From: Terriglobia bacterium
Lineage (GTDB): Bacteria > Acidobacteriota > Terriglobia > 20CM-2-55-15
Direction of reading: 5' to 3'
NCBI GenBank assembly: GCA_965198225.1
Contig: CBDAOY010000006.1
Location: 704,001 to 768,000 of the forward strand
DNA: 64,000 bases
Positions 389 to 63,725 of the stretch are shown here, piece by piece (position 1 is the first letter of the stretch; every line of letters begins with the position of its first letter). A program made the translations under genes and the position numbers. The notes under the pieces were generated by a model, which made no database searches, was not told the origin of the DNA, and was given only the letters and a program-made list of their open reading frames with translations.

Positions 389-638
389 AGTTGAGTATCT
401 CGAGAGCGTCGTGCGGCAAGACATCCCCGGGCTGTCGAGAGCTGCCCGGGGGCGAATCAAGAGAGCCATCGAAGGGAAGCTCGCCACCCGCCCAGTCGAA
501 TTCGGAAAGCCTTTCCGACACAGTCTGAAAGGTGCTCGGGCGCTCCGGGTTGGGGACTACCGTGTCATCTATCGCCTGGAACCCCCTTCGACCGTTGTGG
601 TCCTGAAGATCGGGCACAGAAGAGACGTCTACCGTTGA
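378..638 (+). CDS. RelE/ParE family type II toxin
   Basis: From GTG 378: YRVEY...GKPFRHSLKGARALRVGDYRVIY...VLKIGHRRDVY, typical RelE motifs. Confidence 0.88.
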   Translation: MTYRVEYLESVVRQDIPGLSRAARGRIKRAIEGKLATRPVEFGKPFRHSLKGARALRVGDYRVIYRLEPPSTVVVLKIGHRRDVYR

Positions 639-752
639 CATCACACTGAATCCTCGGCCGAAGGCGATTCATGGAAGTTCGAGATTCGAAATTCGAGATC
701 TCACATCGGGCGGAACCTGTGCCCACTCGTTTGGGCACCGACGCTCATTCCT

Positions 753-27166: not shown

Positions 27167-27267
27167 AACTAGTCGCCTGATGAGAGTCATTAGTGGCAAA
27201 CACGGGTGAAGGCCCGTGATAAATTTTAGCTGCTAAAGGGGATTCCGCTTCTAATCTAAGTTAAGCC

Positions 27268-30507: not shown

Positions 30508-30568
30508 TGTGGGTGATTGGGTGATTTGATTATTTCTTTTGTGCAGTCGAACTGAAAAGGTTATCGCG

Positions 30569-30958
30569 ATGGCGCGCTACGAGCACCTGCCGATCTACAA
30601 ACGGACGCTGGACTTGCTGCTCTATTTCGAGAAGATCGTCCCGAAGTTCTCCCGCTACGACAAGTACACCATCGGTACCGACCTGAGAAACACGACGCGA
30701 TCCGTCCTGAAGTTGATTGTTCGCGCCAACAGCAGCCGGGACAAGCGGCCGGTGCTTGAGGAAATCCGCACCGAATTGGAGGAGCTGATGATTCTGGTGC
30801 GCGTGGCCAAAGAGGTCCGGGCGTTCGAGAATCTGAACTCCTATCAGTATTCTGCCGGCGAGATCATAGAGATCAGCCGGCAGAATGAGGGGTGGCTGAG
30901 AAGTCTGGAACGGAAACAACCAGAATCATCCTCTCGATCACAACCGGTAGAGAGATGA
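30569..30958 (+). CDS. avd: DGR accessory protein Avd (four-helix bundle)
   Basis: HLPIYK...FSRYDKYTIGTDLR...EISRQNEGWLR; lies between VR and TR. Confidence 0.85.
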   Translation: MARYEHLPIYKRTLDLLLYFEKIVPKFSRYDKYTIGTDLRNTTRSVLKLIVRANSSRDKRPVLEEIRTELEELMILVRVAKEVRAFENLNSYQYSAGEIIEISRQNEGWLRSLERKQPESSSRSQPVER

Positions 30959-47675: not shown

Positions 47676-49149
47676 GTTCCTGTTCCCTCTCCGCCTCCGC
47701 CTGCGCGGCTGCCCGGACCTCTGCTATCGGAACAATCCGTCCATGAATGGGCATCACCCGGTCCACACGCAGTCCGAGGTTCTCGATGTTTGCAAGCAAG
47801 TTGGCTACGAAGGGAAATCGCGGCAGGGTGACGGCGTTCGGTGCGGCCGGCGTGAAGACGTCGGCGAAAGTCAGGATGCGCTGCCCGGGAAAATAAACCA
47901 TCAGCAGTGTGCCGGCATGACGGCTTTCCTCGATCGGATACAACTCGATCGCTCGAGTGCCGTCCTCCAGGACATGCCTCCCGCTGATCGTCTCCAGCAT
48001 CAGTGGTTTCGGATTCCGCTGCAGCACATCCGGTGACAACCGGTGGGATCGTGTAGCGATGTCCTCAAACAGTGCGCGGTTCCGCTCGTGCGTGATGATC
48101 GTCAGCCCTTCCGAGATTGCCGCGCGGATTCCCCCCGAATGATCAAAATGGTGGTGGGTGTTTATGACGTGTGTCAGGGGCTTGTCTGGATTCAGCTGCC
48201 GCGCTCGTTCGATCACCGCCAGTGTCCTCGTATCGTTCTGAGGGGCCTCGATCAACACCAGGTGATCCGAGAGCTCGGCCACGACGCTGTGATGGGACTG
48301 TCCCGTCAAATACCAGATCCCGCGCGCGACCTCCTCCACCTCGACCGTTGCCCGCGGGGCCGGCACCGTTGCCGACTTTACGGAATCGGGCGAGGAGAGG
48401 TCGCCGGTGTCACTGTTCAGACTGTTTGTCAGTGTCAACTCCGCAACCATAAACCGGTCCACCATCTGCGTGAACCGTGTCGGGAGCAGGAGGCCGTCGA
48501 CCGGGTCGTAGTCCGCGAACGCCATTTCCGCGATCACATCGCCCAGGGCCGCGTGGTAGATCGTCGTCTGGATCTGCGCAGGCAATTTGGTCTGAGCGTC
48601 GACGTAGAGAGTGAACTCGCCGTCACTTGCGATGATGTCGAGGCTCTCGAACTCTCCCACCGAACGCTTGTTCAGAACCTGGCTTGCGGGATCGAGTGCG
48701 GCGCGCAGGAGCCCGATCGGGTGCATGCTGTTGAGTTGGGTCCTCCTCAAGCGACCCTCCATTTCCGACATGCGCTGGAGGCTTCCGTTTGCCGTGACGT
48801 TGAAGGCCACGCCGTTGTCCAGACCGAGAGTCTGGATGCGAGGATTCGTGTTGCCGGTCAGGTAGCGTGGTTCGCGGGTCCAGCGCAGCTGCCAGCGTCC
48901 GTTCGCGAAATCAATCGCCCTCCGGTACTCCGTGACCTCGAACATCGGGAGCTCACCATCCGGATTCGCATTCTGTCCGAGGTTGTAGCTGGATCCGCCT
49001 CCTTCGAGCACCAGGGTGTTCGCGCCACGGATTGCTTCTTCGCCCCCAACGGCCGTGACCACTTCATCGAGAAGCGCCATTTCAGGATTGGACGCAGAGC
49101 AACCCGCCAGAGCGGCGGCTATGATTGTCACGAGGAGTCGGGGTCTCAT
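47671..49149 (-). CDS. Lipoprotein, MBL-fold metallo-hydrolase
   Basis: LAGC lipobox, THHHFDH, PIHG. Confidence 0.85.
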   Translation of the reverse strand: MRPRLLVTIIAAALAGCSASNPEMALLDEVVTAVGGEEAIRGANTLVLEGGGSSYNLGQNANPDGELPMFEVTEYRRAIDFANGRWQLRWTREPRYLTGNTNPRIQTLGLDNGVAFNVTANGSLQRMSEMEGRLRRTQLNSMHPIGLLRAALDPASQVLNKRSVGEFESLDIIASDGEFTLYVDAQTKLPAQIQTTIYHAALGDVIAEMAFADYDPVDGLLLPTRFTQMVDRFMVAELTLTNSLNSDTGDLSSPDSVKSATVPAPRATVEVEEVARGIWYLTGQSHHSVVAELSDHLVLIEAPQNDTRTLAVIERARQLNPDKPLTHVINTHHHFDHSGGIRAAISEGLTIITHERNRALFEDIATRSHRLSPDVLQRNPKPLMLETISGRHVLEDGTRAIELYPIEESRHAGTLLMVYFPGQRILTFADVFTPAAPNAVTLPRFPFVANLLANIENLGLRVDRVMPIHGRIVPIAEVRAAAQAEAEREQEP

Positions 49150-49260
49150 TGGACTCTCTTGCAGTGTCTGGCCCCCGGCGCGCCGGCGACCCGGAGCCGG
49201 GAAAACATCGCTGCGTATGCTAGCATGACAGGCTCCAGCAACCCGAACCCACGTTTATTG

Positions 49261-51930
49261 ATGACCATCCGTACCGAAATCAGCGGTTCCGCTGCCGAGC
49301 AACTGTCCGACACCTGGTTTCTGGAGCGCATCGCCGAGTGGGCCACAGCCGAGCCCGACAGGTTCGCCTTTGCCGTCGATCACGCCGACACGGTCGAAGA
49401 GTACACCTACGCCGACGTGATGGAGAAATCCGGCCGTATAGCGGCGGCGCTCCATGCCAGCGGCGTCCGGCCCGGAGACCGGGTCGGTATCGAGATGGAC
49501 AACAGTCCCCACTGGGTCTTCATCCTGCTGGGGGCGCTCCGCCTTGGCGGGGTAGGCGTTCCGCTTTCGGTGCTTCTTCCGGCATCTTCGATACGCCGGC
49601 TAGTCGATCACTCCGAATGCAGGCTCGTGTTTGCAGACGAATCCAACATCGAGACGGCCCTGGAGGCTTGCGACACACAGAAAGTGATCGGTGTCGGGAG
49701 CGCCGAGGGCGGCATCGGATGGGACGAATTTCTCCGACGAGGCGAGGGGGCGGACTGGGAACAGAGGGTATCTCCCGACGGAACCGCAGTTCTGATGTAT
49801 ACGTCGGGAACGACGGGCGACCCGAAAGGGGTGCGGATTTCGGCCCGTGGGCTGTCTCATGACATCCGCGGCTTGATCGAACTCCTGGAACTGACCCCCG
49901 GCCACCGGATTCTGTCGGTCCTGCCCTTTTCCCATGTCCTGCCGCTGGTAGCCAACGGGCTGGGTTCGCTGGCGTCGGGCGCTGGAGTGGTCTTCCTGTC
50001 CGTCATATCTCCGCAGGCCATCGTCGACGCATTCAAGCGCCAACGGATCAGTTTCTTTGTGTGTGTCCCACAGTTTTTCTATGCCGTGCACAAGCGAGTC
50101 TTCGCCCAGGTCGCGGAGCAGCCTTGGGTCGCCCGGAAGCTGTTCGGCCTCCTGTTCGGCTTCTCCCGCAGGATCAAGAACCAGCAGCTCAGCCGCAAAC
50201 TCTTCTCGCGAATCCACAAGGGGATCGGGCCCGACCTGACGTTGTTGATAACCGGCGGATCCCGCTTCGAGCCGCGTATTGCCAGGGATTTCCAGACGCT
50301 CGGCTACACGATGGTCCAGGCATATGGATTGACCGAGACCACCGCCGCCGCGACCGCGACGCCGGTCAGCAACAATACGGTCGGAACCGTGGGTTTGCCG
50401 GTCCGGGGCGTTTCGATACGGATCGATCGGCCGAACGAGGAAGGCATCGGCGAGGTCTGCATTGCTGGCGACATCCTGATGCAAGGCTACTATCTCAATG
50501 AAGCAGCGACTGAGGAGGCGATCCGTGACGGCTGGCTTCATACCGGGGACCTGGGCCGCCTCGATTCCGGCGGCAACCTGATGATCACGGGCCGCAGTAA
50601 GGACGTGATCGTGCTGTCGAGCGGCAAGAACATCTACCCCGAGGAGGTCGAGGAGCATTACGAAAAGTGTCCGTTCGTCAAGGAAATGTGCGTGATGGCG
50701 ATGCCCGAGGCATCCGGTCCGGGTGACACACTCCACGCCGTCGTCGTTCCCGATCTGGAGGAGTTCCGCAAGCGAAACCAGACCGCGATCGCCGAGATGA
50801 TCCGCTACGAGTTGGACAACAGGTCGAAGCAACTGGCTTCGTTCATGCGCGTGCACTCCCTGACGGTGCGGAACGAACCCCTGCCGCGGACCGTCACTCG
50901 GAAACTCAAGCGGTTCGAGATTTACGAGGAGGAGGTGAGGGGTTCCGAGACTGCGGATGCGGCCGTACAAACCGAGGACCATCCCAGGCTCCGCGAAGGC
51001 GTCGGTGCGGTCGTGGCAGAGGTCATTCACGAGGCCAAACCCGATCTGGGCGGCCTGCAGCCGGACATGAACTTCGAGCTCGACATGGGCTTTGATTCCC
51101 TCGGTAGAGTCGAACTGCTGGGCGACATCGAAGCACGACTCGACCTCGAGGTGGACGAAGAAAAGGCCAATCAGATCTTTACTCTCGAGGAATTACTCCA
51201 GGTCCTGGACCAGGCTGCAGGGACAGAGAGTTCCCAGCCCCGGAGTTGGAAAGAAAAGCTGACCGAGGACGGAGACGACGAACTTGCCTCACGGTTCATC
51301 CGTGAATCTCGTAAGAGCCTGATTTTATTCGGGTTTCCGACGATCCGACTGCTGGGCTCTATCGCGAAGATTCCGTTCCGGACGAAGGTCCGGGGACTGG
51401 AGAAGCTTCCGCGTCAAGGTCCCTACCTGATATGCCCGAACCATGTTTCTTACCTCGATCCCTTCCTGGTTTGCTCGGTACTGCCGTTTCGAGTGATCCG
51501 GGACATCTTTATCCTCGGCTACACCGACTACTTCGACGGTGCCGTGATGGGTTGGCTCGGGAGCACCGTCAACATCGTGCCGGTCGATCCGAACTCGAAC
51601 CTGACCCGCGCGATGCGGATCGCAGCGGTGGGCCTGCGGAAGCGGCGAATCCTGCTCGTCTTTCCCGAAGGAGAAAGGAGCATCGACGGCAACCTGACCG
51701 AATTCAAGAAGGGATCGGCGATCCTGTCGATCGAGTTGGGCGCCCCGCTCGTACCGATCGGGATGAGAGGTACCTTCGAAGCGTGGCCGCGGGGTGGGAG
51801 CTTGCGCCCCCATCCGGTCGAAATCGTGATCGGCGATCCGATCCTTCCGGACGCTTTCACCGAAGCGCCCGACCCCTATGAGGCGATCAATGACGCTCTG
51901 CGCGAAGCGGTCGCAGGCCTGCTGGAGTGA
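49261..51930 (+). CDS. Fatty acyl synthetase (AMP-binding) + acyl carrier domain + PlsC acyltransferase fusion
   Basis: YTSGTTGDPKG, YGLTE, TGDLG; GFDSL phosphopantetheine site; NHVSYLD, FPEGERS. Confidence 0.9.
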   Translation: MTIRTEISGSAAEQLSDTWFLERIAEWATAEPDRFAFAVDHADTVEEYTYADVMEKSGRIAAALHASGVRPGDRVGIEMDNSPHWVFILLGALRLGGVGVPLSVLLPASSIRRLVDHSECRLVFADESNIETALEACDTQKVIGVGSAEGGIGWDEFLRRGEGADWEQRVSPDGTAVLMYTSGTTGDPKGVRISARGLSHDIRGLIELLELTPGHRILSVLPFSHVLPLVANGLGSLASGAGVVFLSVISPQAIVDAFKRQRISFFVCVPQFFYAVHKRVFAQVAEQPWVARKLFGLLFGFSRRIKNQQLSRKLFSRIHKGIGPDLTLLITGGSRFEPRIARDFQTLGYTMVQAYGLTETTAAATATPVSNNTVGTVGLPVRGVSIRIDRPNEEGIGEVCIAGDILMQGYYLNEAATEEAIRDGWLHTGDLGRLDSGGNLMITGRSKDVIVLSSGKNIYPEEVEEHYEKCPFVKEMCVMAMPEASGPGDTLHAVVVPDLEEFRKRNQTAIAEMIRYELDNRSKQLASFMRVHSLTVRNEPLPRTVTRKLKRFEIYEEEVRGSETADAAVQTEDHPRLREGVGAVVAEVIHEAKPDLGGLQPDMNFELDMGFDSLGRVELLGDIEARLDLEVDEEKANQIFTLEELLQVLDQAAGTESSQPRSWKEKLTEDGDDELASRFIRESRKSLILFGFPTIRLLGSIAKIPFRTKVRGLEKLPRQGPYLICPNHVSYLDPFLVCSVLPFRVIRDIFILGYTDYFDGAVMGWLGSTVNIVPVDPNSNLTRAMRIAAVGLRKRRILLVFPEGERSIDGNLTEFKKGSAILSIELGAPLVPIGMRGTFEAWPRGGSLRPHPVEIVIGDPILPDAFTEAPDPYEAINDALREAVAGLLE

Positions 51931-52156
51931 GGCGGCAGCGCGGGCTGGGCGCCGTCACCGGCCCCCGGGTTCCGGGTGGGGATGCGACATAAGGTTGCGC
52001 TCCAGCGCTCCCAAGTTATAATTGATAGCGACTCCACCATCCATTTTCCTTGGAGTAGTGCCCCTTTGGTGACCCTCTCATCCCTTTTGATGAACCCTGG
52101 TGGTCTTATGCTGGCCGCGTCTGCCGTGCGTTGCCACGATCGGCCCGGAGGAGATC

Positions 52157-52594
52157 ATGGGTAGGAAGTACAAGCAGGAGGGCTATCAGGACAACGGCGG
52201 CAACAGGGATAAAAAAGCAAGGCCGCAACAACAGCCGAAGAGAACCAGAGAGGGACCGCGCTCCCCGAGAATGCCCGGATTTCAGGAAGTGATGCGCTGC
52301 GCCATGTGCGGCAACATCATTTCTACCCTGGTAGAAATCCGGGGCGACAGCCAGTGTCCGAAGTGTCAGGCGGACCTGCGCACTTGCAAACAATGCCGTC
52401 ACTTCGATACTGCTGCTCAATTCGAGTGTACACAGCCGATTCCAAAGCGCATCCTGAAGGACGTCCGGAACGACTGCGAGTTCTTCGACGCGCGCACGTC
52501 GGTGGAACGGGAGACGACCTCCCCGTCGCCGTCCTCTCAGGGGAGTGCAAGTCCCAGGGACGCCCGGAGCGCTTTCGACGATCTCTTCCGCTAG
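52157..52594 (+). CDS. Hypothetical Cys-rich (Zn-finger-like) protein
   Basis: CAMC, CPKC, CKQC, NDCEFF; ends AFDDLF; GGAGG RBS. Confidence 0.75.
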   Translation: MGRKYKQEGYQDNGGNRDKKARPQQQPKRTREGPRSPRMPGFQEVMRCAMCGNIISTLVEIRGDSQCPKCQADLRTCKQCRHFDTAAQFECTQPIPKRILKDVRNDCEFFDARTSVERETTSPSPSSQGSASPRDARSAFDDLFR

Positions 52595-52762
52595 CAACCT
52601 CTTCCGGCAAGGAACCTTGGTTCCGGTGCCGTCGATACTTAAGCTATTTGGTACTAGTGATTTCGCACCCAGCCCGACCCTGCGGCACCGGCCTGAAGGC
52701 CGGCGCGTCAGTAAATTGGGTCCGGCGGGCGCGCCTGTCCAGAAGGACAGAAGGGAAAGAAT

Positions 52763-54247
52763 TTGACAGAAGAAAACCTGAAGATCGCCGTATTCGTCGA
52801 CTTCGACAACATCGAAATCGGAGTCAAGAGTACGCTGAACAAGAATTTTGACATCGGCGCGGTTCTCGAGGCCATCAAAGAACGCGGCGAGATCGTGACG
52901 AAAGTTGCCTACGGAGATTGGAAACGTTCCGGGGATTACGGGCGTGCCATGGGGCAGCATGCCATCCACATGGTCCAGAGGAACCTGACGCCCGGGGGCG
53001 ACAAGAATGGGGCCGACATCAACCTGGCGCTCGACGCGTTGGAGATGGCGTTCATCCGAGACCACATCAATGCTTTTGTTATCGTCGGTGGCGACAGCGA
53101 TTTCATTACGCTGGTCGAAAAACTCAAGCAATACGACAAGAAGGTGTTCGTCGTCGGAGGTCGCGCCTTCACCAGCGCAATCCTCCAGAAGAACTGCCAC
53201 GAGTTCATCGCGTATGAGAACCTCATCCGCTCGCAGTCTTCCGGACGGAAGCAATCGCGTTCGCGAAGCGCGAGCGAAGCACCGTTGGAGAAGGCCGTTC
53301 CGCTCGTACGTCGCGCGCTGAAGATCCTGACGGATCGCGAGGTCTCCCCGCAGTTGGGCCTGCTGAAGAGCACACTGCTCCAGCTCGATTCGACGTTTTC
53401 GGAGCGGGACTATGCCGCCACGACATTTCGCGATTTCATGGAAAAGCTCGCCCGGACAGGCGTGATCAACCTGAAGCAGGTTGATCGCTCGTGGCTGGTG
53501 GAGCTCCGCGAGGAGAAATCCGACAACGGCGAACGGGATCGGACGACTCGCAGCAGGAAGGCGAAGGCGTCGTCTCGGAGGAAGCCGGAGGGTCCGGGAC
53601 CCGACAACGGCGAGGAGCCTGCCGGTGCCGAGAATGGTTCGGCCCGGCAGGAAGAGGGGGTCCAGGTGATCCGATCGGTTGTAGAGACGATCGATGCGAC
53701 CCAGAAATGGCCGATGTACCTGCGGAACGTCAAACAGCTCCTCAAGTCCGCCCGCCCCGACTTCGACGAGAAGGAATACGGATTCTCGAGTCTGCTGGAC
53801 GCCGTGCGACAGAGCCAGAGGGCCGGTGTTTTCCGGCTCGAGCGGAACCGGCAGGGTGTGCTCCGGATATTCCCGGGTGAGATGTCAAAAGCCCCGGAGC
53901 TGGCGGCCTCCGACACGCCGCGGGAAGCGGAAGCCTCTGTAGACGAGTCAGTTACGTCCAGTGAGGTTGTGCCCGAAGCCGTGGAACCCGGATTGGATCA
54001 GGCGGAGGCTGTTCCCGAGGCCGCGGCCGCCGGGAAGCCGACCCGGAAACGAAAGACCACGGCGACCAAGACTCGCAAGACGACGAAGAAAGCCGCCAAG
54101 AAGGTCACGAAAACTACCAGGAAGAAGACTACCCGGACGACGAAGAAGGCCACCAAGACAACTCGCCGCGCCGCCAAGAAGGAGCCTGCCGCAGCCGACA
54201 AGCCCGTAGAGCCCGCGGTCGCCGCGAAACTTGAGGATCAAGTGTAG
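52763..54247 (+). CDS. NYN-domain protein with LOTUS/OST-HTH domains and K/T-rich tail
   Basis: FVDFDN, KNGADI, GDSDF; FSERDY and FDEKEYGF LOTUS-like motifs. Confidence 0.85.
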   Translation: MTEENLKIAVFVDFDNIEIGVKSTLNKNFDIGAVLEAIKERGEIVTKVAYGDWKRSGDYGRAMGQHAIHMVQRNLTPGGDKNGADINLALDALEMAFIRDHINAFVIVGGDSDFITLVEKLKQYDKKVFVVGGRAFTSAILQKNCHEFIAYENLIRSQSSGRKQSRSRSASEAPLEKAVPLVRRALKILTDREVSPQLGLLKSTLLQLDSTFSERDYAATTFRDFMEKLARTGVINLKQVDRSWLVELREEKSDNGERDRTTRSRKAKASSRRKPEGPGPDNGEEPAGAENGSARQEEGVQVIRSVVETIDATQKWPMYLRNVKQLLKSARPDFDEKEYGFSSLLDAVRQSQRAGVFRLERNRQGVLRIFPGEMSKAPELAASDTPREAEASVDESVTSSEVVPEAVEPGLDQAEAVPEAAAAGKPTRKRKTTATKTRKTTKKAAKKVTKTTRKKTTRTTKKATKTTRRAAKKEPAAADKPVEPAVAAKLEDQV

Positions 54248-54527: not shown

Positions 54528-55139
54528 CTAATGGACGGCGAAGTGGACCGCCTTCAGGACTTCGTCGACGATTGCGGGATCAAACTGCGTTCCCTTGCCG
54601 ATGATGAGCTGCTCGGCCGCTTCCCGCTCGGTCCGTCGCGTGCGATAAGACCGTTCGCTCGTCATTGATTCATAGGCATCCAGGACAGCGATAACCCGCG
54701 CCGCAAAGGGTATGGCGTCCCCTTCGAGACCGTCGGGATAACCCCTGCCGTCGTACCGCTCGTGGTGGTGCAGCACGACGTCGGCAATGTGGGCAAAGTC
54801 ATCGGCATGCTCCAGGGCCTCGAATCCCAGCCGGGCGTGTCCCTGCATGATGATCCGCTCATCCACGGTGAGGATGCCGGGCTTGTGGAGGATAGGGTCG
54901 GGTATGGCGATGGTTCCCAGGTCGTGCAGGTGAGCCGCCGCCTCGGCAACAGCAATTTCGTCAGCCGACAGTTCCATCCTTTGGCAGACGTCTCGCGCAA
55001 GAAGCCGCATGCGCTCGCTGTGTAGCCCGACTGTGCGGTCGCGCATCCGGACCAGGTTGGCGAACGTTCCGGTCTGCGCCTCGGCCGGGTCTTTTGTAAG
55101 CCTGTCTAGCAACGTCGACATACTGAGTTCCTCGTCCAT
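54528..55139 (-). CDS. Stand-alone HD-GYP phosphodiesterase (copy 1, divergent)
   Basis: HDLG, HHERYDGRGYP, GTQFDP. Confidence 0.9.
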   Translation of the reverse strand: MDEELSMSTLLDRLTKDPAEAQTGTFANLVRMRDRTVGLHSERMRLLARDVCQRMELSADEIAVAEAAAHLHDLGTIAIPDPILHKPGILTVDERIIMQGHARLGFEALEHADDFAHIADVVLHHHERYDGRGYPDGLEGDAIPFAARVIAVLDAYESMTSERSYRTRRTEREAAEQLIIGKGTQFDPAIVDEVLKAVHFAVH

Positions 55140-55252
55140 TCTCCTGCGCCCCGTTGGACGCCTGATGAGTGTTGAAGAGAGCCGAGAGCCCTTGTAAAAG
55201 AGTCCCCGGCGTGTGGGGCGCGACCTGCGCGGAATCCCCGCTTCACCTTTGC

Positions 55253-55280
55253 TTATCGGCCCGAACACCCCGGAGCATTA
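55253..55280 (-). promoter_or_regulatory. Sigma28-like promoter
   Basis: TAAT-N16-GCCGATAA upstream of HD-GYP copy 1. Confidence 0.5.
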
Positions 55281-55293
55281 ACTTTTTTTCGGG

Positions 55294-55732
55294 TCACGGG
55301 GCCATGCTTTCATCCAGCGACATCCGAACGACTTCCCGGATCCGGGCGATCGGTTCGATTCTTCCTGTCGTTGTTTCGATGAGGAACGCCGGCAATATCC
55401 TGTAGCTCTTGAGGATCCCGACGCCCAGCTGTTCCAGTTCAGAGGCGAGGTCTTCCTTCAGTTCGGGTCGCGTGCGCACCAGGATGCGGACTGCCTGGTC
55501 GGAAGTTCCATCCTGATCCCGAATCCCTTCCACCATCTTCCGGAGCGCTTCGTCGAGTTTGTCCGTGAATGTCCCTTCGGATTCTGCTGAACCGGAGTCG
55601 GTCATTGTGTTTCCCGTTTGTGATTGTGCCGCGGCCGGGACCCAGCCCGAAAGGACCAGGCTGACCACGACCGTCCGGGACCCAGCCCGAAAGGACCAGG
55701 CTGACCACGACCGTGTAAAAAATCTTCTTCAT
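55294..55732 (-). pseudogene. Secreted subtilase-propeptide-like protein, frameshifted by a 40-bp tandem duplication
   Basis: MKKIFYTVVVSLVLSGWVP signal; exact repeat 55635-55674/55675-55714; mature part KLDEAL..VRILVR..MSLD resembles the neighbours' prodomains. Confidence 0.65.
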
Positions 55733-55823
55733 GATTGTCCCATCCTGGTCAGAGCGGAGATCGCTCCAACCTTGACTGCGGTTTCGGAAAGCAGCCGAGG
55801 CCGCATTCCGAAGGTAAAGGTTG

Positions 55824-56426
55824 TCAGTGAAGCTGGACCCGGCAACCGATGACTTCGAGCAAAGCGTCGACGACATCGGGGTCGAACTGAGTCCCTTTTC
55901 CACCCAGCAACTCAATGCCGGCGGCCTGTATCGTCCGTCCCTTACGGTACGGACGATCCGTCGTCAGCGCGTCGTACGCATCCACTACAGCGATGACGCG
56001 CGAGCCGAACGGAATGTTGTCCCCAGCGCGATGGCTCGGATAACCCGTGCCGTCGTACCACTCGTGGTGATGGAGCACGATCGGGGCGAGATGGCTGAAC
56101 TCGTCCATCTCGCGCAGGGCTGCCGCGCCCAAGGCCGAGTGGGTCTGCATGATCTCCCACTCGTCGGCGCTGAGGCGGCCCGGTTTCCGCAGGATTTCAT
56201 CCGGGATGCCGATCTTGCCGATATCGTGCAGGTACGCAGCGGCCTCGATCGTTTGAGTGTCTGCCGGACCGAGGCCGAATTGCTCGCAGATCTTGCTTGC
56301 GAGATCCAGCACCCGGTCGCTGTGAATCCCCGTGTAGGGGTCCCGGACCCGGAGCAGGCTCAGGAACGATTTCGCCTGCCCCGCGATCTGGTCTAACTGA
56401 AGTTCTTGCATGATTACAGTCGACAT
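55824..56426 (-). CDS. Stand-alone HD-GYP phosphodiesterase (copy 2)
   Basis: HDIGK, HHEWYDGTGYP, RPYRK. Confidence 0.92.
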   Translation of the reverse strand: MSTVIMQELQLDQIAGQAKSFLSLLRVRDPYTGIHSDRVLDLASKICEQFGLGPADTQTIEAAAYLHDIGKIGIPDEILRKPGRLSADEWEIMQTHSALGAAALREMDEFSHLAPIVLHHHEWYDGTGYPSHRAGDNIPFGSRVIAVVDAYDALTTDRPYRKGRTIQAAGIELLGGKGTQFDPDVVDALLEVIGCRVQLH

Positions 56427-56440
56427 CGGAACCTCCTGCC

Positions 56441-58451
56441 TTAAAAGTCGTCCCAGGTAATGGTCTTACCCCAGACGATGGTTTCCGCGTCGACCTCGTC
56501 CCAGACGATGGTCTTACCCCAAACGATGGTTTCGCCTTCGACCTCTTCCCAGGTGATGGTCTTGCCCCAGACAATGGTTTGGCCGTAGGACGTCTCGTTG
56601 TAGTCGAAGTTGTCGGCTTCATAGAGGCCCTTGCCCCAAACGATGGTCTCGCTCCAAACGGCCGGATATCCGGAAATCACGTTGGAGTAGTCCAGGCCCA
56701 CGCCGTTGTTGAGGAGCCAGTAGTCTCCTTCAGCGGTCGTGGCGTCGACGTTGGCGGCCAGGTTGACCGCACCGGCAGCGTTCATGTAGCCGGCGCCCAC
56801 CGCGTACGGGTTGCCGAAGTTGCCCTCGGCCGTGTACATCAGGATGGCCTTGACCTGGTTCGGCGTCAGGTACGGGTTCTGCTCCAGCATCAATGCGACG
56901 GCGCCGGCGACGACCGGGGCCGACATGCTGGTGCCGCTGAGCCACATATAATTGTTGTCCACAACGATCTGCGGGTGGTTGGTCGCCAGAGCGTTTCCGG
57001 CGGCGCGGGCCGCAACGATCTGGGTTCCCGGAGCCGCGATGTCGGGTTTGATCAACTCTTCAAACCGCGTCGGTCCCCGAGAGCTGTAAGAGGCGACTGT
57101 ATCGTCGGACCGGGATGGCGTATCCCAGGTCGTCATCGCACCGACCGTGAGGGCCGACGCTTCGGTACCCGGGCTCGTGATCGCACCGTATTGGATCTCG
57201 CCATCCGCATTCTTACCGCCGTTGCCGGCCGACACGACGACGACGATACCGGCATCGACTGCCGCGCGAACCATCAAGGTCATCGGATCGGTGTCGGCCG
57301 ACTCGTACGGCATGTGGCCGAGCGAGAGGTTGATGACGCGGATGTTGTAGATGTCGCGATTCAAGATTGCCCATTCGAGCGCCTCGATGACGTCGCTGGT
57401 CTGGCCGCCGCCGCTGGCGCTCAAGACCTTCAAGTCGATCAGGTGGGCCCCTGGCGCCATGCCGGCGTACTGTCCGCCCGACGCCATGCCGTTACCGGCA
57501 ACGATCCCGGCCACGTGGGTGCCGTGCCCGAACTCGTCCCCGCCGGTGTTACCGCCCGTGAAATCCACCGTGTGGACCACGTTGGGCAGATCGACATGAC
57601 CGCCGATGCCGCTGTCGATGACAGCGATTCCGATGCCCGCGCCGGTGACCCCGTATGCCAGGGCCGCATCTAAGGCGCCGGTGACGGTGGCCAGCTCACC
57701 GGGCGTGCCGTTTCCGTTCTGCGACAGTTCGATATTCGCATCCAGGTGCAAGGAGGCGACGTCGTAGTTGTCGGCCAGCGTGTCGAGCAGATCGGCCGGA
57801 ACTTCGACCACGATCCCGTCAAACAGCTGGAACTTGCCGATGCCGTCCTGGATCGCGGCGCCCTGGCTGGAAAGGTTCTCCAGGCTCGCTTTGTAGCCCG
57901 GCTGTGCCCGAATGATGACCCGAACGGTTTCGACTTCCGTGTTGACGGAATCGATCTTCTCGTTTATCGCTTTTTCAAACTTCTTCCGGATCTCATTGTC
58001 GATCTTCGAGTCGATGCGGGCCAACGTCTCTGCCAGCTTCGCCTGCCGTTTGGCCTTCTCTACGGCGGCCTTGTCGGCAGCCTCATTTTTCAGCGCGGCG
58101 GCCTTGTCGGCAGCCTCATTTTGCTCAGCGGCGGTCTTATCGGCAGCCGCCATTTCCAACACGGCGGCCGTCTCCAACGTGGCGGCCGTCTCGTTAGCCA
58201 CCATTTCGAACTCGGCAGCCGCTATTTCCAACGTGGCGGCCGTCTCGTTAGCCACCATTTCGAACTCGGCGGCCTTGTCGGCAGCCTCATTTTCCAGCGC
58301 GGCGGCCTTGTCGGCAGTCTCCATTTCCAACGCGGAGGCTGTCTCGGCAGCCTGTTCCATGATTTTTGCGAGGCCGAGCTGCTGGGCGCTCGCGGTATAC
58401 GGCGCGACCAGCGTCAGGCTCAACATTAAGAGTTATAAGTAAACGCTTCAT
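56441..58451 (-). CDS. S8 subtilase with Trp-rich C-terminal repeats (copy A; 1-nt frameshift in the signal peptide)
   Basis: VIDSG, HGTHVAG, GTSMS; RBS-linked ATG 58451 is out of frame with ORF 56441-58426. Confidence 0.88.
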
Positions 58452-58520
58452 TAAGCTCCTCCAAATGAAAGGGACGGGAAGACGGGGTCTGCAGCGCAGA
58501 CTCTCCCGCTTCATTCGTAC

Positions 58521-58547
58521 GTATCGACGGGAATAGCCAAAGGTTTA
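58521..58547 (-). promoter_or_regulatory. Sigma28-like promoter of subtilase A
   Basis: TAAA-N15-GTCGATAC. Confidence 0.6.
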
Positions 58548-58615
58548 GTATTTTTTGGCAGGCGAGTGAGGATTTCGCGGAAGAACGCTCGGTTTTCTGG
58601 AAGGACAATGGAGGG

Positions 58616-58648
58616 TTCGGAAAGCGGCCAAGGCGACCGCTTTCCGAA
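58616..58648 (-). terminator. Hairpin after HD-GYP copy 3 (degenerate copy at 55783-55812)
   Basis: TTCGGAAAGCGG-N9-CCGCTTTCCGAA. Confidence 0.55.
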
Positions 58649-58659
58649 GGTTAAGGTTG

Positions 58660-59262
58660 TCAGTGAAGCTGGACCCGGTAACCGATGACCTCGAGCAGGG
58701 CGTCGACGACATCGGGATCGAACTGGGTTCCCTTGCCGGAGAGCAACTCGATGCCGGCCACCTCGATCGACTGCGCCTTGCGGTACGGACGGTCCGACGA
58801 TAGCGCGTCGTAGGCATCCAGTACGGCGATGACGCGCGAGCCGAACGGGATGTTCTCGCCGGCGCGCCGGCTCGGGTAACCCGTGCCGTCGTACCGCTCG
58901 TGGTGATGCAGCACGATCGGGGCGAGATGGCTGAACTCGTCCATCTCTCTCAGGGCTGCCGCGCCCAGGGCCGAGTGGGTCTGCATGATCTCCCACTCGT
59001 CGGCAGTGAGGCGGCCCGGTTTCCGGAGGATGTCGTCCGGGATGGCGATCTTGCCGATATCGTGCAGGTACGCACCGGCTTCAATTGTCTGGGTGTCTGC
59101 CGGACCGAGTCCGAACTGCTCGCACATCTTGCTTGCGAGATCCAGCATCCGGTCGCTGTGAACCCCCGTGTAGGGGTCCCGGACCCGGAGCAGGCTCAGG
59201 AACGACTTGGCCTGCCCCGCGATCTGGTCTAACTGAAGTTCTTGCATGATTACAGTGGACAT
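58660..59262 (-). CDS. Stand-alone HD-GYP phosphodiesterase (copy 3)
   Basis: HDIGK, HHERYDGTGYP; near-identical to copy 2. Confidence 0.92.
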   Translation of the reverse strand: MSTVIMQELQLDQIAGQAKSFLSLLRVRDPYTGVHSDRMLDLASKMCEQFGLGPADTQTIEAGAYLHDIGKIAIPDDILRKPGRLTADEWEIMQTHSALGAAALREMDEFSHLAPIVLHHHERYDGTGYPSRRAGENIPFGSRVIAVLDAYDALSSDRPYRKAQSIEVAGIELLSGKGTQFDPDVVDALLEVIGYRVQLH

Positions 59263-59274
59263 CGGGACCTCCAC

Positions 59275-61281
59275 CTAAAAGTCATCCCAGGTAATGGTCT
59301 TACCCCAGGTGATGGTCTCAGCGTCGACTTCATCCCAGGCGATGGTCTTGCCCCAGGTGATGGTTTCGCCTTCGACTTCGTCCCAGACGATGGTCTTGCC
59401 CCAGACGATGGTCTCGCCCTCGACTTCTTCCCAGGTGATGGTCTTGCCCCAGACGATGGTTTCGCTGTAGGACGTCTCGTTGTAGTCGAAACCGTCGACC
59501 GAGTAGAGGCCCTTGCCCCAGACGATGGTCTCCGCCCAGACAGCGGGGAAACCGGCGATCACGTTGGAGTAGTCCAGGCCCACCCCGTTATTGAGGAGCC
59601 AGTAGTCTCCCACGGCGGTCGTGGCGTCGACGTTGGCGGCCAGGTTGACCGCGCCTGCGGCGTTCATGTAGCCGGCACCCACTTCAAATGGGTTGCCCTT
59701 GCCGGCCTCGGCCGTGTACATCAGGATGGCCTTGACCTGGTTGGGCGTCAGGTAGGGGTTCTGCTCCAGCATCAACGCGACGGCGCCCGAGACTACCGGA
59801 GCCGCCATGCTGGTGCCGCTGAGCCACATGTAGTTGTCATCGACGACGACCTGCGGGTAGTTCTTCGCAAGATCGTTCTTGTCGCCCCTGGGGGCTACGA
59901 TCTGGGTTCCCGGAGCCGCGATGTCGGGCTTGATCAACTCCTCGAACCGCGTCGGTCCCCGAGAGCTGTAACCGGCGACCGTGTCATCGGCCCGGCTGGG
60001 GGTATCCCAGGTCGTCATCGCGCCGACGGTCAGCGCGGACGCTTCGGTACCGGGACTCGTGACGCCGCCGTAGACGATCTCGCCCTCGATCCTGCCGGCG
60101 TTACCGGATGAAACCACGACGACGATGCCCGCGTCGACGGCCGCGCGGACCATCAACGTCAGCGGATCGGTATCGGCCGACTCGTAAGGCATGTGGCCGA
60201 GCGAGAGGTTGAGGATGCGGATGTTGTACTGGTCGCGATTCAGTAGCGCCCATTCGATGGCTTCGATGACGTCGCTCGCGCTGCCACCACCGTTATTCTT
60301 GAGCACTTTGAGGTCGATCAGGTGGGCTCCCGGCGCCATGCCGGCGTACTGTCCCCCCGACGCCATGCCGTTACCGGCAATGATCCCGGCCACGTGGGTG
60401 CCGTGCCCGAATCCGTCGCGCCGGTTGTTCACTCCGTTCTGGCTGGCGTTGGTGGTGAAGTCCTCGGTATGGACGACGTTGGGAAGGTCGATGTGGTCGT
60501 CGTCGATGCCGCTGTCGATGACGGCGATGCCGATACCTGCGCCGGTGACCCCGTATGCCTGGGCCGCCTCTAGGGCGCCCGTGACGGTGGCCAACTCACC
60601 GGGTAGGTTACCCCCCGTAGCCGTGGATCCGTTTCCATTGTTGGACTGGCCGTTGCCCGCACCGTTTCCATTCTGCGACAGTTCGATGTCCGCATCCAGG
60701 TGCACGGAGGCGACGGCAAAATGGTCGGCCAGCGTGTCGAGCAGATCGGCCGGAACTTCGACCACGATCCCGTCGAACAGCTTGAACTTGTTGACGCCGC
60801 CCTTGATGTTAGCGCCCAAGCTGGAAAGCCTCGCCAGGTTCGATTTACTGCCTGGCTGGGGCCGAATGATGACCCGAACGGTCTCGACCTCCGCGTTGAC
60901 GGAATCGATCTTCTTGTTTTTCGCTTTCTTGAATTTCTTCAGGACCTCGTTGTCGACTTTCTTAGAGATCCGCGCCAGGGTGTCGGCCAGCTTCTGCTTG
61001 GCGGCGGCCAGGGCTGCCTGAGCCTTCGCAAGCCGCTTTTCCGCTTTGGCGTTTTGCTTGGCGTTCGCATTCTTTTTGTTGGCAGTTTTTTCAGCTTTGG
61101 CTTCGGCCCTGGCGACGCCTTTCTCCGCCTGGTTGACCTTCTTGTTAGCCTTCTTGACTTGGTTGGCCCCTTTCTTGGCCGCCTGTTCGATGATCTTAGT
61201 AAGGTTGGGTCCTTGGGCGCTGACGCCATCGGGCGCGACCAGCGTCAGGCTCAACATCATAGTTATTAGTAAACGCTTCAT
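59275..61281 (-). CDS. S8 subtilase with Trp-rich C-terminal repeats (copy B, intact)
   Basis: Signal peptide, K/A-rich extension, prodomain, VIDSG/HGTHVAG/GTSMA, TIxWGK repeats. Confidence 0.92.
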   Translation of the reverse strand: MKRLLITMMLSLTLVAPDGVSAQGPNLTKIIEQAAKKGANQVKKANKKVNQAEKGVARAEAKAEKTANKKNANAKQNAKAEKRLAKAQAALAAAKQKLADTLARISKKVDNEVLKKFKKAKNKKIDSVNAEVETVRVIIRPQPGSKSNLARLSSLGANIKGGVNKFKLFDGIVVEVPADLLDTLADHFAVASVHLDADIELSQNGNGAGNGQSNNGNGSTATGGNLPGELATVTGALEAAQAYGVTGAGIGIAVIDSGIDDDHIDLPNVVHTEDFTTNASQNGVNNRRDGFGHGTHVAGIIAGNGMASGGQYAGMAPGAHLIDLKVLKNNGGGSASDVIEAIEWALLNRDQYNIRILNLSLGHMPYESADTDPLTLMVRAAVDAGIVVVVSSGNAGRIEGEIVYGGVTSPGTEASALTVGAMTTWDTPSRADDTVAGYSSRGPTRFEELIKPDIAAPGTQIVAPRGDKNDLAKNYPQVVVDDNYMWLSGTSMAAPVVSGAVALMLEQNPYLTPNQVKAILMYTAEAGKGNPFEVGAGYMNAAGAVNLAANVDATTAVGDYWLLNNGVGLDYSNVIAGFPAVWAETIVWGKGLYSVDGFDYNETSYSETIVWGKTITWEEVEGETIVWGKTIVWDEVEGETITWGKTIAWDEVDAETITWGKTITWDDF

Positions 61282-61352
61282 TAAGCTCCTCCGATTACAA
61301 GGGGACAGGGAGACGGCGGTCTGTCGCGCAGACTTCCCCGATTCATTCGTTC

Positions 61353-61435
61353 GTATCGGCGCGAATAGCCAAAGGTTTAGTTTTTTTGTGTCCCGGATGA
61401 GGAAAAGCTAAAGTCAAAGGGTTCCGGGCCGATAA
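61353..61435. promoter_or_regulatory. Divergent sigma28 (FliA/WhiG-type) promoters
   Basis: Minus TAAA-N15-GCCGATAC (61379-61353); plus TAAA-N15-GCCGATAA (61409-61435), an exact consensus match. Confidence 0.75.
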
Positions 61436-61463
61436 AGATGGAAACCCTTGGAGGTGGACTGCG

Positions 61464-63725
61464 TTGGGTAAGGAAAATACCTATAAGGATCTGCCGATCG
61501 GCGCCCGCATCGCGATTGCCGTGTCCGTTACGGTCGGTGTGGGACTATTCTCTATCTCGCTGATCCGTTTCGACTGGACCCAGTACTGGGCGTTTTTGTT
61601 CATCCTGGCGGTAGCCGGCGTCACGGCCAACACCACGGTTCGGCTACTGGGCGGCTCGTCGCTGTCCCTTCTGACTTCCGTTGTCTTGATGTCGTTGATT
61701 TCATTGGGTCCGGATGGGGCCGTGATGATCGCCATCTGTGGGGTGGTCTTCCAGACCGCAGTGCCGGCCCGGACGGTCTTTTCCTACACTCTGGCCTTCA
61801 ACGTCGGGATGATCGGTGCGACGGTATGGGGCGCCGGGCGCGCGTACCAATTGCTCAGCGATTACGCTTCCGCAGGCTCGCTGGTCGCACTGCTGGTGGC
61901 GTCGCTCGTCTATTATTTTGGCAACTCCGTCTTCGTTTCGATGATCGTGGGGCTGTCGAGCCGAAAGTCGCCGTTCAAGATCTGGCACGACCACTTCCTG
62001 TATACCGCTCCGGCATTCTTCATGGCCGGGGTTCTGGCCTTCGCGGCCAATGAGATCTTGAAGTCGGTCCACTTCAGTGTGCTGCTGGTGCTCGCGCCGA
62101 TCCTTTATTTCAGCTACTACTCCTACAAGGTCTACCTGGAGAACCTCCAGAGCGAGAAGAAACATGCCGAGGACATGGCCCTGCTCCACGGGTCGACGCT
62201 CGAGACTCTCGTCCTGGCGATCGACGCGAAAGATCGGAACCAGGGACACGTCGTCCGTGTCCAGAAATACGCCAGGGAACTCGCCGTAGCCATGAAGCTC
62301 GACGAAGAAGAAGTCGAAGGGATTGCTGCCGCCGCCCTGCTTCACGATATCGGGAAGCTGGCCGTGCCCGAGCATATCATTAAGAAGAAGGGCGCACTGA
62401 CCGCCGAGGAGATGGCGAAGATGAGGCTGCACCCGGAAACGGGCGCCGACATCATCGCCAATATCAAGTTCGCGTATCCGGTCTCCGACACCATCCGTCA
62501 CCACCACGAGCGCTTCGACGGCTCAGGCTATCCCGCGGGACTCAAGGGTGAAGACATCCCGCTCGGCTCGCGGGTGCTGGCTGTTGTGGACTCGTGCGAA
62601 AGCTACATGTCGCGTCACCAGGGTCGAGCCGACGATTCCATGGCGATGCTGGAGCGAGATTCAGGAACTCATTTCGACGCCACGGTCGTGGCGGCATGGA
62701 AAGAGATCTACCGCGACGTCCTTGATTCCGGAGTCGACACGACCGCGACGCCGGATCAGATGGCACCTTTCCAGGACATCGGGCGAGCAGCGTCGGAAGT
62801 CGAGACGCTCGACGAACTGGCGGAGACGGTCAACGCGATGGATTCGGTTCAAGAGATCGCGGCGACCGCGACCCGGATGCTGGAAGGGATCGTGCCCAGC
62901 ACCGCAGTTTTCTGGCTACCCAACGGTGACGAAATCGTGACCTGTGTTGAGGAGGGAGAAGACGCGCAGATGTTGCCGATCGGAGCCGGTGTGTCGGGCT
63001 GGGTGGCCGCCGAGCGCAGTTCGTGCGTGAACATGACGGCGAACTTCGGTCCATACAAGGGTTCCCGCGTCGTTGCGGTCCCGGTTCTGTTCGAAGACGA
63101 GCTTCTCGGAGTGCTGTCGGTCTACCGCGGCAACCCGGAGTTCAGCGACGACGAGGTCCGGCTCGTGACCGCTGCCGCCGACCGTATTGCGAGCAGCCTC
63201 CAGAGCGCCAGCGCGCTCGAAGTCGTGCGGCGGGACGCCACGTCGGACCGCCTGACCGGTCTGGCAAACCGCAGGGCGCTGGAGAAGGCTTTCGAAACGA
63301 TCGCGGGCGGGTTCTCTCTCGTCCTGATCGACATCAACGCGTTCAAGGCTGTCAACGACACCTTCGGTCATCAGGCTGGTGATGACGCCCTAGTACGGAT
63401 TGCCGAGCACCTGCAGACTACGTTCGATTCCTCGGACATCGTCTGTCGGCTGGGCGGGGACGAGTTCCTCGTTGCCAGTGAGGAATCTTCCTTCGCGCTG
63501 CGGAGAAAGGTCCGGGAATTCAGGAAGATGGTGGCCCAGGATCCGGTCTTCGAACGGTACCAGAGCCTCGGATTCGGCGTCAGCTGGGGCGTGGCCGCTG
63601 CCCCCGACGACGGCCCCGACCTCGAGAAGGTGACCGCCGTAGCCGACGGACGGATGTACAACCTCAAGACCCGGATCAAGCAGAAAGTTCGCCTGGCCTT
63701 TCCTATGGCCCACGCCAGCCGGTAA
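61464..63725 (+). CDS. Multi-TM sensor + HD-GYP + GAF + GGDEF protein
   Basis: About 7 TM helices, HDIGK/HHERFDGSGYP, GAF-like GVSGWVA...VPV, DRLTGLANR, RLGGDEF. Confidence 0.92.
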   Translation: MGKENTYKDLPIGARIAIAVSVTVGVGLFSISLIRFDWTQYWAFLFILAVAGVTANTTVRLLGGSSLSLLTSVVLMSLISLGPDGAVMIAICGVVFQTAVPARTVFSYTLAFNVGMIGATVWGAGRAYQLLSDYASAGSLVALLVASLVYYFGNSVFVSMIVGLSSRKSPFKIWHDHFLYTAPAFFMAGVLAFAANEILKSVHFSVLLVLAPILYFSYYSYKVYLENLQSEKKHAEDMALLHGSTLETLVLAIDAKDRNQGHVVRVQKYARELAVAMKLDEEEVEGIAAAALLHDIGKLAVPEHIIKKKGALTAEEMAKMRLHPETGADIIANIKFAYPVSDTIRHHHERFDGSGYPAGLKGEDIPLGSRVLAVVDSCESYMSRHQGRADDSMAMLERDSGTHFDATVVAAWKEIYRDVLDSGVDTTATPDQMAPFQDIGRAASEVETLDELAETVNAMDSVQEIAATATRMLEGIVPSTAVFWLPNGDEIVTCVEEGEDAQMLPIGAGVSGWVAAERSSCVNMTANFGPYKGSRVVAVPVLFEDELLGVLSVYRGNPEFSDDEVRLVTAAADRIASSLQSASALEVVRRDATSDRLTGLANRRALEKAFETIAGGFSLVLIDINAFKAVNDTFGHQAGDDALVRIAEHLQTTFDSSDIVCRLGGDEFLVASEESSFALRRKVREFRKMVAQDPVFERYQSLGFGVSWGVAAAPDDGPDLEKVTAVADGRMYNLKTRIKQKVRLAFPMAHASR

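Follow-up and report, generated by a model that had tools for sequence, protein, structure and literature searches.

Secreted subtilases encoded beside a MASE9-like membrane sensor domain in Acidobacteriota

What does an exported protease have to do with a membrane sensor that controls cyclic di-GMP (c-di-GMP), and do the two belong together beyond a single genome? The question is raised by a gene cluster at positions 54,528–63,725 of a 64,000-nt stretch of a Terriglobia bacterium assembly (GCA_965198225.1, contig CBDAOY010000006.1, positions 704,001–768,000), hereafter the window. Acidobacteriota are abundant soil bacteria whose signalling, to our knowledge, is almost unstudied. An earlier note on the window had described three minus-strand units (subtilase B with HD-GYP1, subtilase A with HD-GYP2 and a propeptide-only protein with HD-GYP3) divergent from a plus-strand membrane sensor with HD-GYP and GGDEF domains, and had read them as a quorum-sensing-like circuit, a label that we regard as conjecture. 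Open reading frames (ORFs) and Pfam matches place every gene where that note had drawn it, and its observation is real: this soil-bacterium cluster combines secreted subtilisin-type proteases with a c-di-GMP-controlling membrane sensor. The spacing of at most 15 bp that it gave for each protease and its HD-GYP gene holds for subtilase B, whose stop precedes the HD-GYP1 ATG by 12 nt and is abutted by an alternative GTG at 59274, and for subtilase A, where HD-GYP2 starts 14 nt past the stop; it does not hold for the third pair, in which the small ORF and HD-GYP3 are ~170 nt apart.

The neighbourhood survey proposed in the earlier note, of this subtilase family against the family of the sensor's transmembrane (TM) domain, bore out the pairing of protease and sensor. 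It covered 78 subtilase loci from species-representative genomes, drawn from the best 80 of 613 tblastn-confirmed matches; all were chosen by subtilase similarity, are 33–51% identical and, with five exceptions, are titled Acidobacteriota. Sensor homologues were sought by BLASTP and then with an iterated TM-domain profile, which matches the window sensor at E 1.8e-60. BLASTP with the sensor returned, beside the subtilase, either full-length homologues (27–35% identity, ~790–810 columns) or matches to the TM domain only. Loci with at least 750 bp of downstream flank were counted as informative (n = 67), the other 11 having too little flank to tell. A TM-domain homologue adjoins the subtilase in 44 of the 67 informative loci. 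It lies directly downstream on the same strand in 41 (including L036, whose open frames overlap and which was assigned to this class by hand), upstream on the same strand in two and divergent, as in the window, in one (L062); in one further locus it was found only at 4.4 kb from the subtilase. The gap between subtilase and partner, taken between stop-to-stop ORFs, is often −12 to +20 nt, and the two genes are often translationally coupled.

The association is confined to short distances. Within 1.5 kb of an S8 gene 45 TM-domain ORFs were found in 212 kb, followed by none at 1.5–3 kb (181 kb), ten at 3–6 kb (313 kb) and two beyond 6 kb (338 kb). Ten loci, which presumably account for the 3–6 kb ring, carry a full-length sensor and an oligopeptide-transporter operon a few kilobases upstream of the subtilase. 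In a FastTree phylogeny with a single subtilase from each locus, which leaves aside the extra paralogues in L002, L009, L028, L050, L062, L067 and L074, linked loci occur in all three main clades. The recurrence of the same protease–sensor pairing in many related genomes suggests that the two work together. The outputs fused to the membrane domain differ between loci (Table 1); such exchange of outputs on an unchanging membrane domain is the hallmark of a sensory input.

The reading that we prefer, tentatively and at just short of probable, is that the MASE9-like domain reads a protease-dependent periplasmic cue and couples it to c-di-GMP. The window would then hold a lineage-specific version of a module common among Acidobacteriota, composed of an exported S8 subtilase with a hydrophobic–Gly repeat tail and a MASE9-type sensor domain. 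The periplasmic cue would be either the subtilase itself or some small product that it generates, read in a membrane-embedded MASE9 pocket, and candidates for it are a peptide released from subtilase substrates, the propeptide or the tail. The oligopeptide-transporter genes at part of the loci, described next, also count in favour of this reading.

Alternatively, the protease could be the target and not the signal: the MASE9 sensor would read an unrelated membrane or nutrient cue and, by way of c-di-GMP or a phosphorelay, control the neighbouring genes for the protease and for peptide uptake. Two-component genes often lie beside their own regulon, and the hybrid kinases and c-di-GMP enzymes among the partners are typical regulators. 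Sigma-54 activators occur in 18 of the 78 loci, that of L027 with a C-terminal PilZ domain, and oligopeptide ABC-transporter genes, recognized by binding-protein homologues, in 21, of which 18 belong to the 44 linked loci. Both are combined in the Sulfotelmatobacter-type order, consisting of a divergent sigma-54 activator (PAS, PilZ), a full sensor, an oligopeptide ABC transporter (two permeases, a family-5 binding protein and an ATPase), the subtilase and a stand-alone MASE9-like protein, so that the transporter genes share the operon. The window offers less to this explanation: neither duplicated upstream segment before its subtilases holds a sigma-54 consensus site at three mismatches or fewer. 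A scan for sigma-70-like promoters returned no site in its intergenic DNA, and its first 54 kb contain no oligopeptide transporter. What tells most against the protease as target is the output-less TM domain directly after the subtilase, often translationally coupled and in some loci present beside a full-length sensor, a pairing that regulation alone hardly explains. We consider it rather unlikely that the protease is the target.

Several further neighbours were recorded at the surveyed loci. In L013 (2704–4296) the upstream full-length sensor is broken into several short frames, while the stand-alone TM gene downstream of the subtilase is undamaged. A GNAT acetyltransferase often lies directly downstream of subtilases without a MASE9 partner (Table 1). 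Tandem subtilase paralogues, five in L074 (218–11851) and three in L028 (451–7572), have no MASE9 neighbour.

What the sensor might read depends on its membrane domain. Against Pfam MASE9 (PF20972) the window domain scores 18.0 bits (E 0.0029), below the cut-off of 24.3. Homologues found with the same profile exceed that cut-off in L050 (31.2 bits), L038 (30.5), L067 (26.2), L061 (25.2) and L027 (24.8), and PF20972 occurs in 11–24% of the members of the nearest Atlas clusters. Because several partners pass the Pfam cut-off while the window domain does not, the latter is best called MASE9-like. An AlphaFold2 (AF2) model of the domain, built from 52 sequences, has a predicted local distance difference test score (pLDDT) of 90.7, with helices at residues 12–35, 38–55, 70–99, 107–132, 138–166, 170–201 and 204–244; as modelled, it agrees with the polytopic domain of ~8 TM helices, N-terminal to the outputs, that defines MASE9.

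In a Foldseek comparison of this model, 17 of the 20 best listed PDB matches were S components of energy-coupling factor (ECF) transporters (among them CbiM, NikM, RibU and BioY), with probabilities of 0.75–1.00, a best E of 9.4e-4, target TM-scores of 0.55–0.69 and sequence identities of 7–18%. The predicted fold is thus akin to that of the substrate-binding S components, which are small membrane proteins with an outward-open pocket for a small substrate. Compared with CbiM (5x3x), NikM (4m5b), RibU (5kbw, 3p5n) and BioY (4dve), the modelled fold is alike, and the MASE9-like domain differs in being fused to signalling outputs or encoded beside a protease. A general scan of the window at 1–48 kb returned no ECF module genes, no search having been aimed at EcfT or EcfA. 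An ECF-S-like fold would point to a small ligand in a pocket of the membrane. In the available text of a preprint by Galperin and Chou, MASE9 is a promiscuous sensor domain of the integral-membrane kind, for which neither ligand nor partner is known and which is proposed to bind its ligand inside the membrane (10.1101/2021.11.05.467447). A narrower proposal, in which MASE9 is an ECF-S-like receptor for a short periplasmic peptide supplied by the partner subtilase, possibly from its own repeat tail or propeptide, is unlikely in so specific a form.

The proteases themselves belong to the S8 family. PF00082 scores are 185.9 bits for subtilase B and 174.6 bits for subtilase A (curated cut-off 21.8), and the D256, H293 and S491 triad and oxyanion N394 of subtilase B are invariant in a 36-sequence alignment (A1), with the same motifs in copy A. 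Subtilase B comprises a putative signal peptide, assigned by reading the sequence only, a Lys-rich helical linker, a putative propeptide, the S8 catalytic domain and a Trp-repeat tail (aa 586–668, nt 59278–59526); subtilase A has an acidic linker of 33-nt repeats (family D1) and a Trp-repeat tail at ~nt 56444–56659. The subtilases have no Pfam I9 match, and in subtilase B AF2 predicts a strand–helix–strand unit at aa 134–200. The closest solved structure to subtilase B is 3afg (E 2.9e-52), a Tk-SP-type subtilisin like 9ues, which aligns over the catalytic domain and ~60 residues beyond; unlike the window subtilases, this type lacks both a hexapeptide-like repeat tail and a helical charged linker, and is not paired with a sensor. 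The linker spans ~100 aa between signal peptide and propeptide in both subtilases (58031–58378 and 60890–61210) and carries a net charge of −12 in subtilase A and +21 in subtilase B; with such opposite charges, the paralogues might pair.

In the earlier note, the proposed ligand of the sensor was the secreted protease or Trp peptides cut from its tail; in the specific version, such peptides would be autoinducers of the sensor in a quorum-sensing-like loop. Consistent with this, the repeats have a period of 48 nt (family D2) and form 16-aa units with acidic spacers between them; their copy number differs among relatives, an AF2 model of the whole of subtilase B is confident in the core and shows no fold in the tail (pLDDT 22–42), and peptide transporters occur in related loci. 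However, the repeat tail is a trait of the whole subtilase family and not special to this locus. The family comprises 5938 matches at E ≤1e-10 (the label AprX is frequent in one source), and the C-termini of the best 120 of these show short repeats, for example a hydrophobic triplet plus Trp-Gly. In the 78 loci the repeats are often six residues long, and one major clade lacks Trp altogether. Tails without Trp are found in 11 TM-domain-linked loci, which weakens the idea of a Trp peptide, while unlinked subtilases carry similar repeats. The tails of two relatives match the Pfam beta-roll families LbR_Ice_bind and RTX, pointing to a structural domain. The linkage does not depend on Trp, and we judge the autoinducer version very improbable. 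Co-folding of the TM domain (aa 1–245, alignment A2) with the subtilase B tail (aa 545–668, alignment A1) gave a score of 0.00, which counts neither for nor against binding. In P0004, a 71%-identical subtilase of another assembly, the C-terminus is rich in Pro, Gly and Lys and resembles an alternative frame of the repeat tail, which suggests a frameshift.

Control could also run inside-out: the MASE9 domain would retain the exported subtilase at the inner membrane, place it there or gate it, in a state set by the cytoplasmic domains, by analogy with LapD–LapG. Tight gene coupling would fit such docking, for which stand-alone TM partners could serve as plain docks, as would a tail predicted to be unfolded alone and the Trp-acidic-acidic-hydrophobic C-terminus of 20 of the 41 nearest relatives. 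In LapD–LapG, too, an inner-membrane protein linked to c-di-GMP is functionally tied to a protease that is exported. The protease LapG is of the cysteine type; LapD has a periplasmic domain, a HAMP domain and a degenerate GGDEF-EAL pair, and its signal flows outward. The window, in contrast, has an S8 protease, no EAL domain and none of the LapD parts, and falls outside the class; the match of the sensor to the NCBIfam LapD model is confined to its GGDEF part, at 33 bits against 1020. Besides this lack of any defining Lap-system part, histidine-kinase outputs normally carry signals inward, and MASE9 is reported, in the part of the preprint available, to have only short periplasmic loops (10.1101/2021.11.05.467447). 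We consider docking improbable.

Returning to a periplasmic cue read by the MASE9-like domain, the cytoplasmic outputs indicate how it could reach c-di-GMP. The sensor GGDEF domain scores 105.7 bits against PF00990 (cut-off 23.8) with its active-site motif intact, and no RxxD inhibitory site, in the usual definition of that motif, lies just upstream. The HD_5 scores of all four HD-GYP domains of the cluster are 126–132 bits (cut-off 27.2), and the metal-binding H, HD, H, HHE and D residues are kept in each. In the sensor, KPG reads KKG and RxY[K/R] is replaced, with a four-residue gap. KPG and RxY[K/R] are the substrate-binding motifs of HD-GYP domains, the second largely setting c-di-GMP specificity, according to the available preprint text (10.1101/2021.11.05.467447). 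HD-GYP1 and HD-GYP2 have every metal- and substrate-binding motif (HD, HHHE, GYP, KPG, RPYR); in HD-GYP3, 49% identical to HD-GYP1, HDxGK reads HDLGT, and KPG and RSYR are kept. All three are predicted phosphodiesterases with canonical motifs. The best PDB matches of HD-GYP1 are 5z7c (E 3.6e-40), a cGAMP-specific enzyme and its best solved relative, and 4mcw (E 2.7e-34). Since the HD-GYP domain of the sensor has degenerate substrate-binding motifs, the sensor would respond mainly through its intact GGDEF cyclase, and the stand-alone HD-GYPs, made with the protease, would break down c-di-GMP at any time when the protease operons are expressed. Protease production, c-di-GMP level and the choice between sessile and dispersed life would thus be wired together.

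The small HD-GYPs were also considered as recent fragments of the sensor, a candidate that we rejected. They are only 38% identical to the sensor HD-GYP domain and have stand-alone relatives of 187–206 aa at 61–95% identity, and are therefore established genes; HD-GYP3 has a group of its own (stand-alone, 197–198 aa, 54–79% identical).

The history of the array is one of tandem duplication. As the earlier note had seen, the subtilase–HD-GYP unit was duplicated together with its upstream DNA: offsets are 2830–2954 nt, subtilases A and B are 69% and HD-GYP1 and HD-GYP2 90% identical, and ~105 nt 5′ of each subtilase start codon, including the ribosome-binding site, align at ~87%. Stable hairpins downstream of both HD-GYP1 and HD-GYP2 make it probable that each unit is a two-gene operon; the hairpin after HD-GYP1, a probable operon end, went uncalled in the terminator scan for want of a U-tract. 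In subtilase A, a 1-nt insertion relative to copy B right after the conserved start (58427–58452) breaks the frame between the long ORF and ATG 58451 with its ribosome-binding site; the ORF as listed starts at an internal ATG and its signal peptide is reduced to a stub.

The small ORF in front of HD-GYP3 has neither a Pfam match nor BLASTP similarity to the window subtilases. Since it matches the propeptide part of the subtilase-family profile (nodes 22–108, E 3.6e-8), 'propeptide-only protein', the name given to it in the earlier note, is a fair description as judged from the profile. A 40-nt tandem duplication (55632–55711, family D14, copies 98% identical), perhaps a recent mutation, perhaps an artefact of assembly, shifts its frame from that of ATG 55732 and the signal peptide. 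Only two stand-alone homologues were found among 1.84 billion representative proteins: P0241 (133 aa, 93% identical, signal peptide intact) and P0242 (134 aa, 47% identical). With HD-GYP3, it makes up a third, older unit of the array.

These damaged 5′ ends in two units, and a sensor that is divergent rather than downstream, could mean that the window shows no functional link at all, with the sensor and the protease array being mere neighbours and the small HD-GYPs co-transcribed passengers. However, adjacency is conserved elsewhere, including the divergent L062, and close relatives hint that the set is kept together. A 78%-identical subtilase and an 80%-identical sensor both lie on 530398-nt contigs, a 71%-identical subtilase and an 87%-identical HD-GYP both on 2728329-nt contigs, and two further subtilase–sensor pairs on contigs of 5271 and 4404 nt; that the members of each pair share one contig is something we infer. 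We find an accidental neighbourhood barely plausible.

Several observations nevertheless weigh against a protease-dependent cue read by the MASE9-like domain. At the level of the survey, 22 informative loci with at least 750 bp of downstream flank have no TM domain, and none appeared when they were searched again with all filters off; at least 14 gains or losses of the TM partner are needed on the subtilase tree; and output-less stand-alone MASE9-like proteins, which do no signalling by themselves, are common as partners. A stand-alone HD-GYP of ~200 aa follows the subtilase in none of the 78 loci, so that the conserved pair is protease plus MASE9-like domain and not the protease plus HD-GYP unit of the earlier note; the latter arrangement appears to belong to the window's own lineage. 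The close relatives themselves, with 65–99% identical subtilases, lie outside the surveyed loci. Within the window, the sensor TM domain, besides its sub-threshold MASE9 score, departs from the best-conserved motif of the TM-domain family, and, with the 5′ ends of two of the three units disrupted, part of the array may be decaying. Binding by the sensor, cleavage of the tail and the direction of signalling are hypothetical. Collectively, the earlier interpretation finds partial support: the protease–sensor linkage, the variety of outputs and the peptide transporters at some of the loci speak for it, and the lack of a conserved protease–HD-GYP pairing, the linked loci with Trp-less tails and the tails of unlinked subtilases speak against it.

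Comparison with described systems places the parts and leaves the combination apart. All parts are of known kinds, and the sensor architecture is already published: MASE9-HD-GYP-GAF-GGDEF proteins with the domain order of the window sensor are described in the preprint (10.1101/2021.11.05.467447), the available text of which contains neither 'protease' nor 'ECF'; that text is likewise without the subtilase partner, the forms with histidine kinases or without outputs, and the ECF-S-like fold of the present analysis. In NisP/NisK, Agr and Phr-Opp, an exported protease, which in NisP is of the S8 family, makes a peptide that is read by a polytopic membrane kinase or imported by Opp. The likeness here lies in the Opp-type genes of the 21 related loci. 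As differences, no precursor-peptide or modification genes were identified, though the small ORFs of the loci went unexamined; c-di-GMP enzymes are among the outputs, and the host is a diderm. DbfQ with DbfRS offers another likeness: the gene of an exported protein lies next to that of a membrane sensor, which the protein modulates directly, with effects on the biofilm lifecycle; as far as the accessible part of that report goes, DbfQ is no protease and the DbfRS sensor domain is unrelated, unlike the window pair (PMC12714742). No description of the subtilase–MASE9 pairing or of the likeness between MASE9 and ECF S components was found in open-access papers and preprints.

Outside the cluster, a 1295-aa adenylation–carrier–acyltransferase protein and an NYN-plus-LOTUS-domain protein lie directly upstream of it at 48043–54247, with no tie to the cluster seen. 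At 27265–30955 the window encodes a TIR-domain protein, two ORFs that jointly span a STAND NTPase (nSTAND1) with an Lcl C-terminal domain, and a bAvd-like protein, a group that may be a defence or diversity-generating element. A REP-like palindromic element has 11 intergenic copies (chance expectation 0), including both flanks of the cluster; as the copies are spread over the window, we rejected them as borders of a mobile element.

Table 1. Features of the cluster and its surroundings (window coordinates) and of the surveyed loci (handles, with locus coordinates where given)
Feature	Position or loci	Strand	Remarks
Sensor, 753 aa	61464..63725	+	Pfam HD_5 1.4e-37, GGDEF 2.8e-30, GAF 5.7e-9
Sensor domains	MASE9-like TM aa 1–245 (nt 61464–62198), HD-GYP 255–408, GAF 463–579, GGDEF 592–737		
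Divergent intergenic region, subtilase B/sensor	61282..61463		B-proximal part is one copy of the duplicated upstream segment
Subtilase B, 668 aa	59275..61281	-	Pfam Peptidase_S8 E 1.3e-54
HD-GYP1, 200 aa	58660..59262	-	Pfam HD_5 E 2e-36
Hairpin, 14-bp, directly 3′ of HD-GYP1 stop	58616..58648	-	-27.7 kcal/mol, z -6.4
Duplicated upstream segment of subtilase A, with ribosome-binding site and conserved ATG 58451	58427..58556	-	Repeat families D10, D12, D13
Subtilase A, 661 aa as listed	56441..58426	-	Pfam S8 E 3.6e-51
HD-GYP2, 200 aa	55824..56426	-	Pfam HD_5 E 4.2e-37
Hairpin 3′ of HD-GYP2	55784–55812		z -3.6
Secreted propeptide-like protein	55294..55732 including ATG 55732; small ORF 55294..55668	-	Family-profile propeptide match
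HD-GYP3, 197 aa	54528..55121	-	Pfam HD_5 E 3e-38
REP-like element	10393, 12205, 12250, 45759, 46025, 54242, 54426, 54471, 63767, 63811, 63882		
Partner output: hybrid histidine kinase	L011, L019, L020, L049, L057, L065, L075		HisKA-HATPase-REC
Partner output: PAS-kinase-REC	L047		
Partner output: plain kinase	L067		
Partner output: HD-GYP-GAF-GGDEF	L027, L041, L050, L061		
Partner output: HD-GYP-GAF	L008, L010, L034, L035, L056		
Partner output: HD-GYP alone	L015		
Partner output: none	e.g. L027, L038		~250 aa
Operon of Sulfotelmatobacter type	L027 745–12377; same order in L007, L012, L016, L017, L018, L031, L044, L051		Sensor MASE9-HD-GYP-GAF-GGDEF
GNAT acetyltransferase downstream of subtilase	L001 11353–12144, L009 12214–12978, L054 11818–12531, L022 11915–12865, L040 6486–7439		

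A conserved and often translationally coupled protease partner provides a concrete route to what MASE9 senses. If the domain is indeed an ECF-S-like receptor with a protease-supplied ligand, the pairing would represent a widespread protease-gated signalling module of Acidobacteriota, connected to c-di-GMP enzymes or histidine kinases and in certain lineages to an Opp importer as well, and would give this orphan sensor domain its first ligand class. The window would be a natural variant, in which small enzymes made along with the protease seem, judging by the motifs, to have taken over phosphodiesterase activity from the sensor. A real link would mean that the choice between attached and dispersed life is tied to proteolysis outside the cell and, in certain lineages, to the uptake of peptides.

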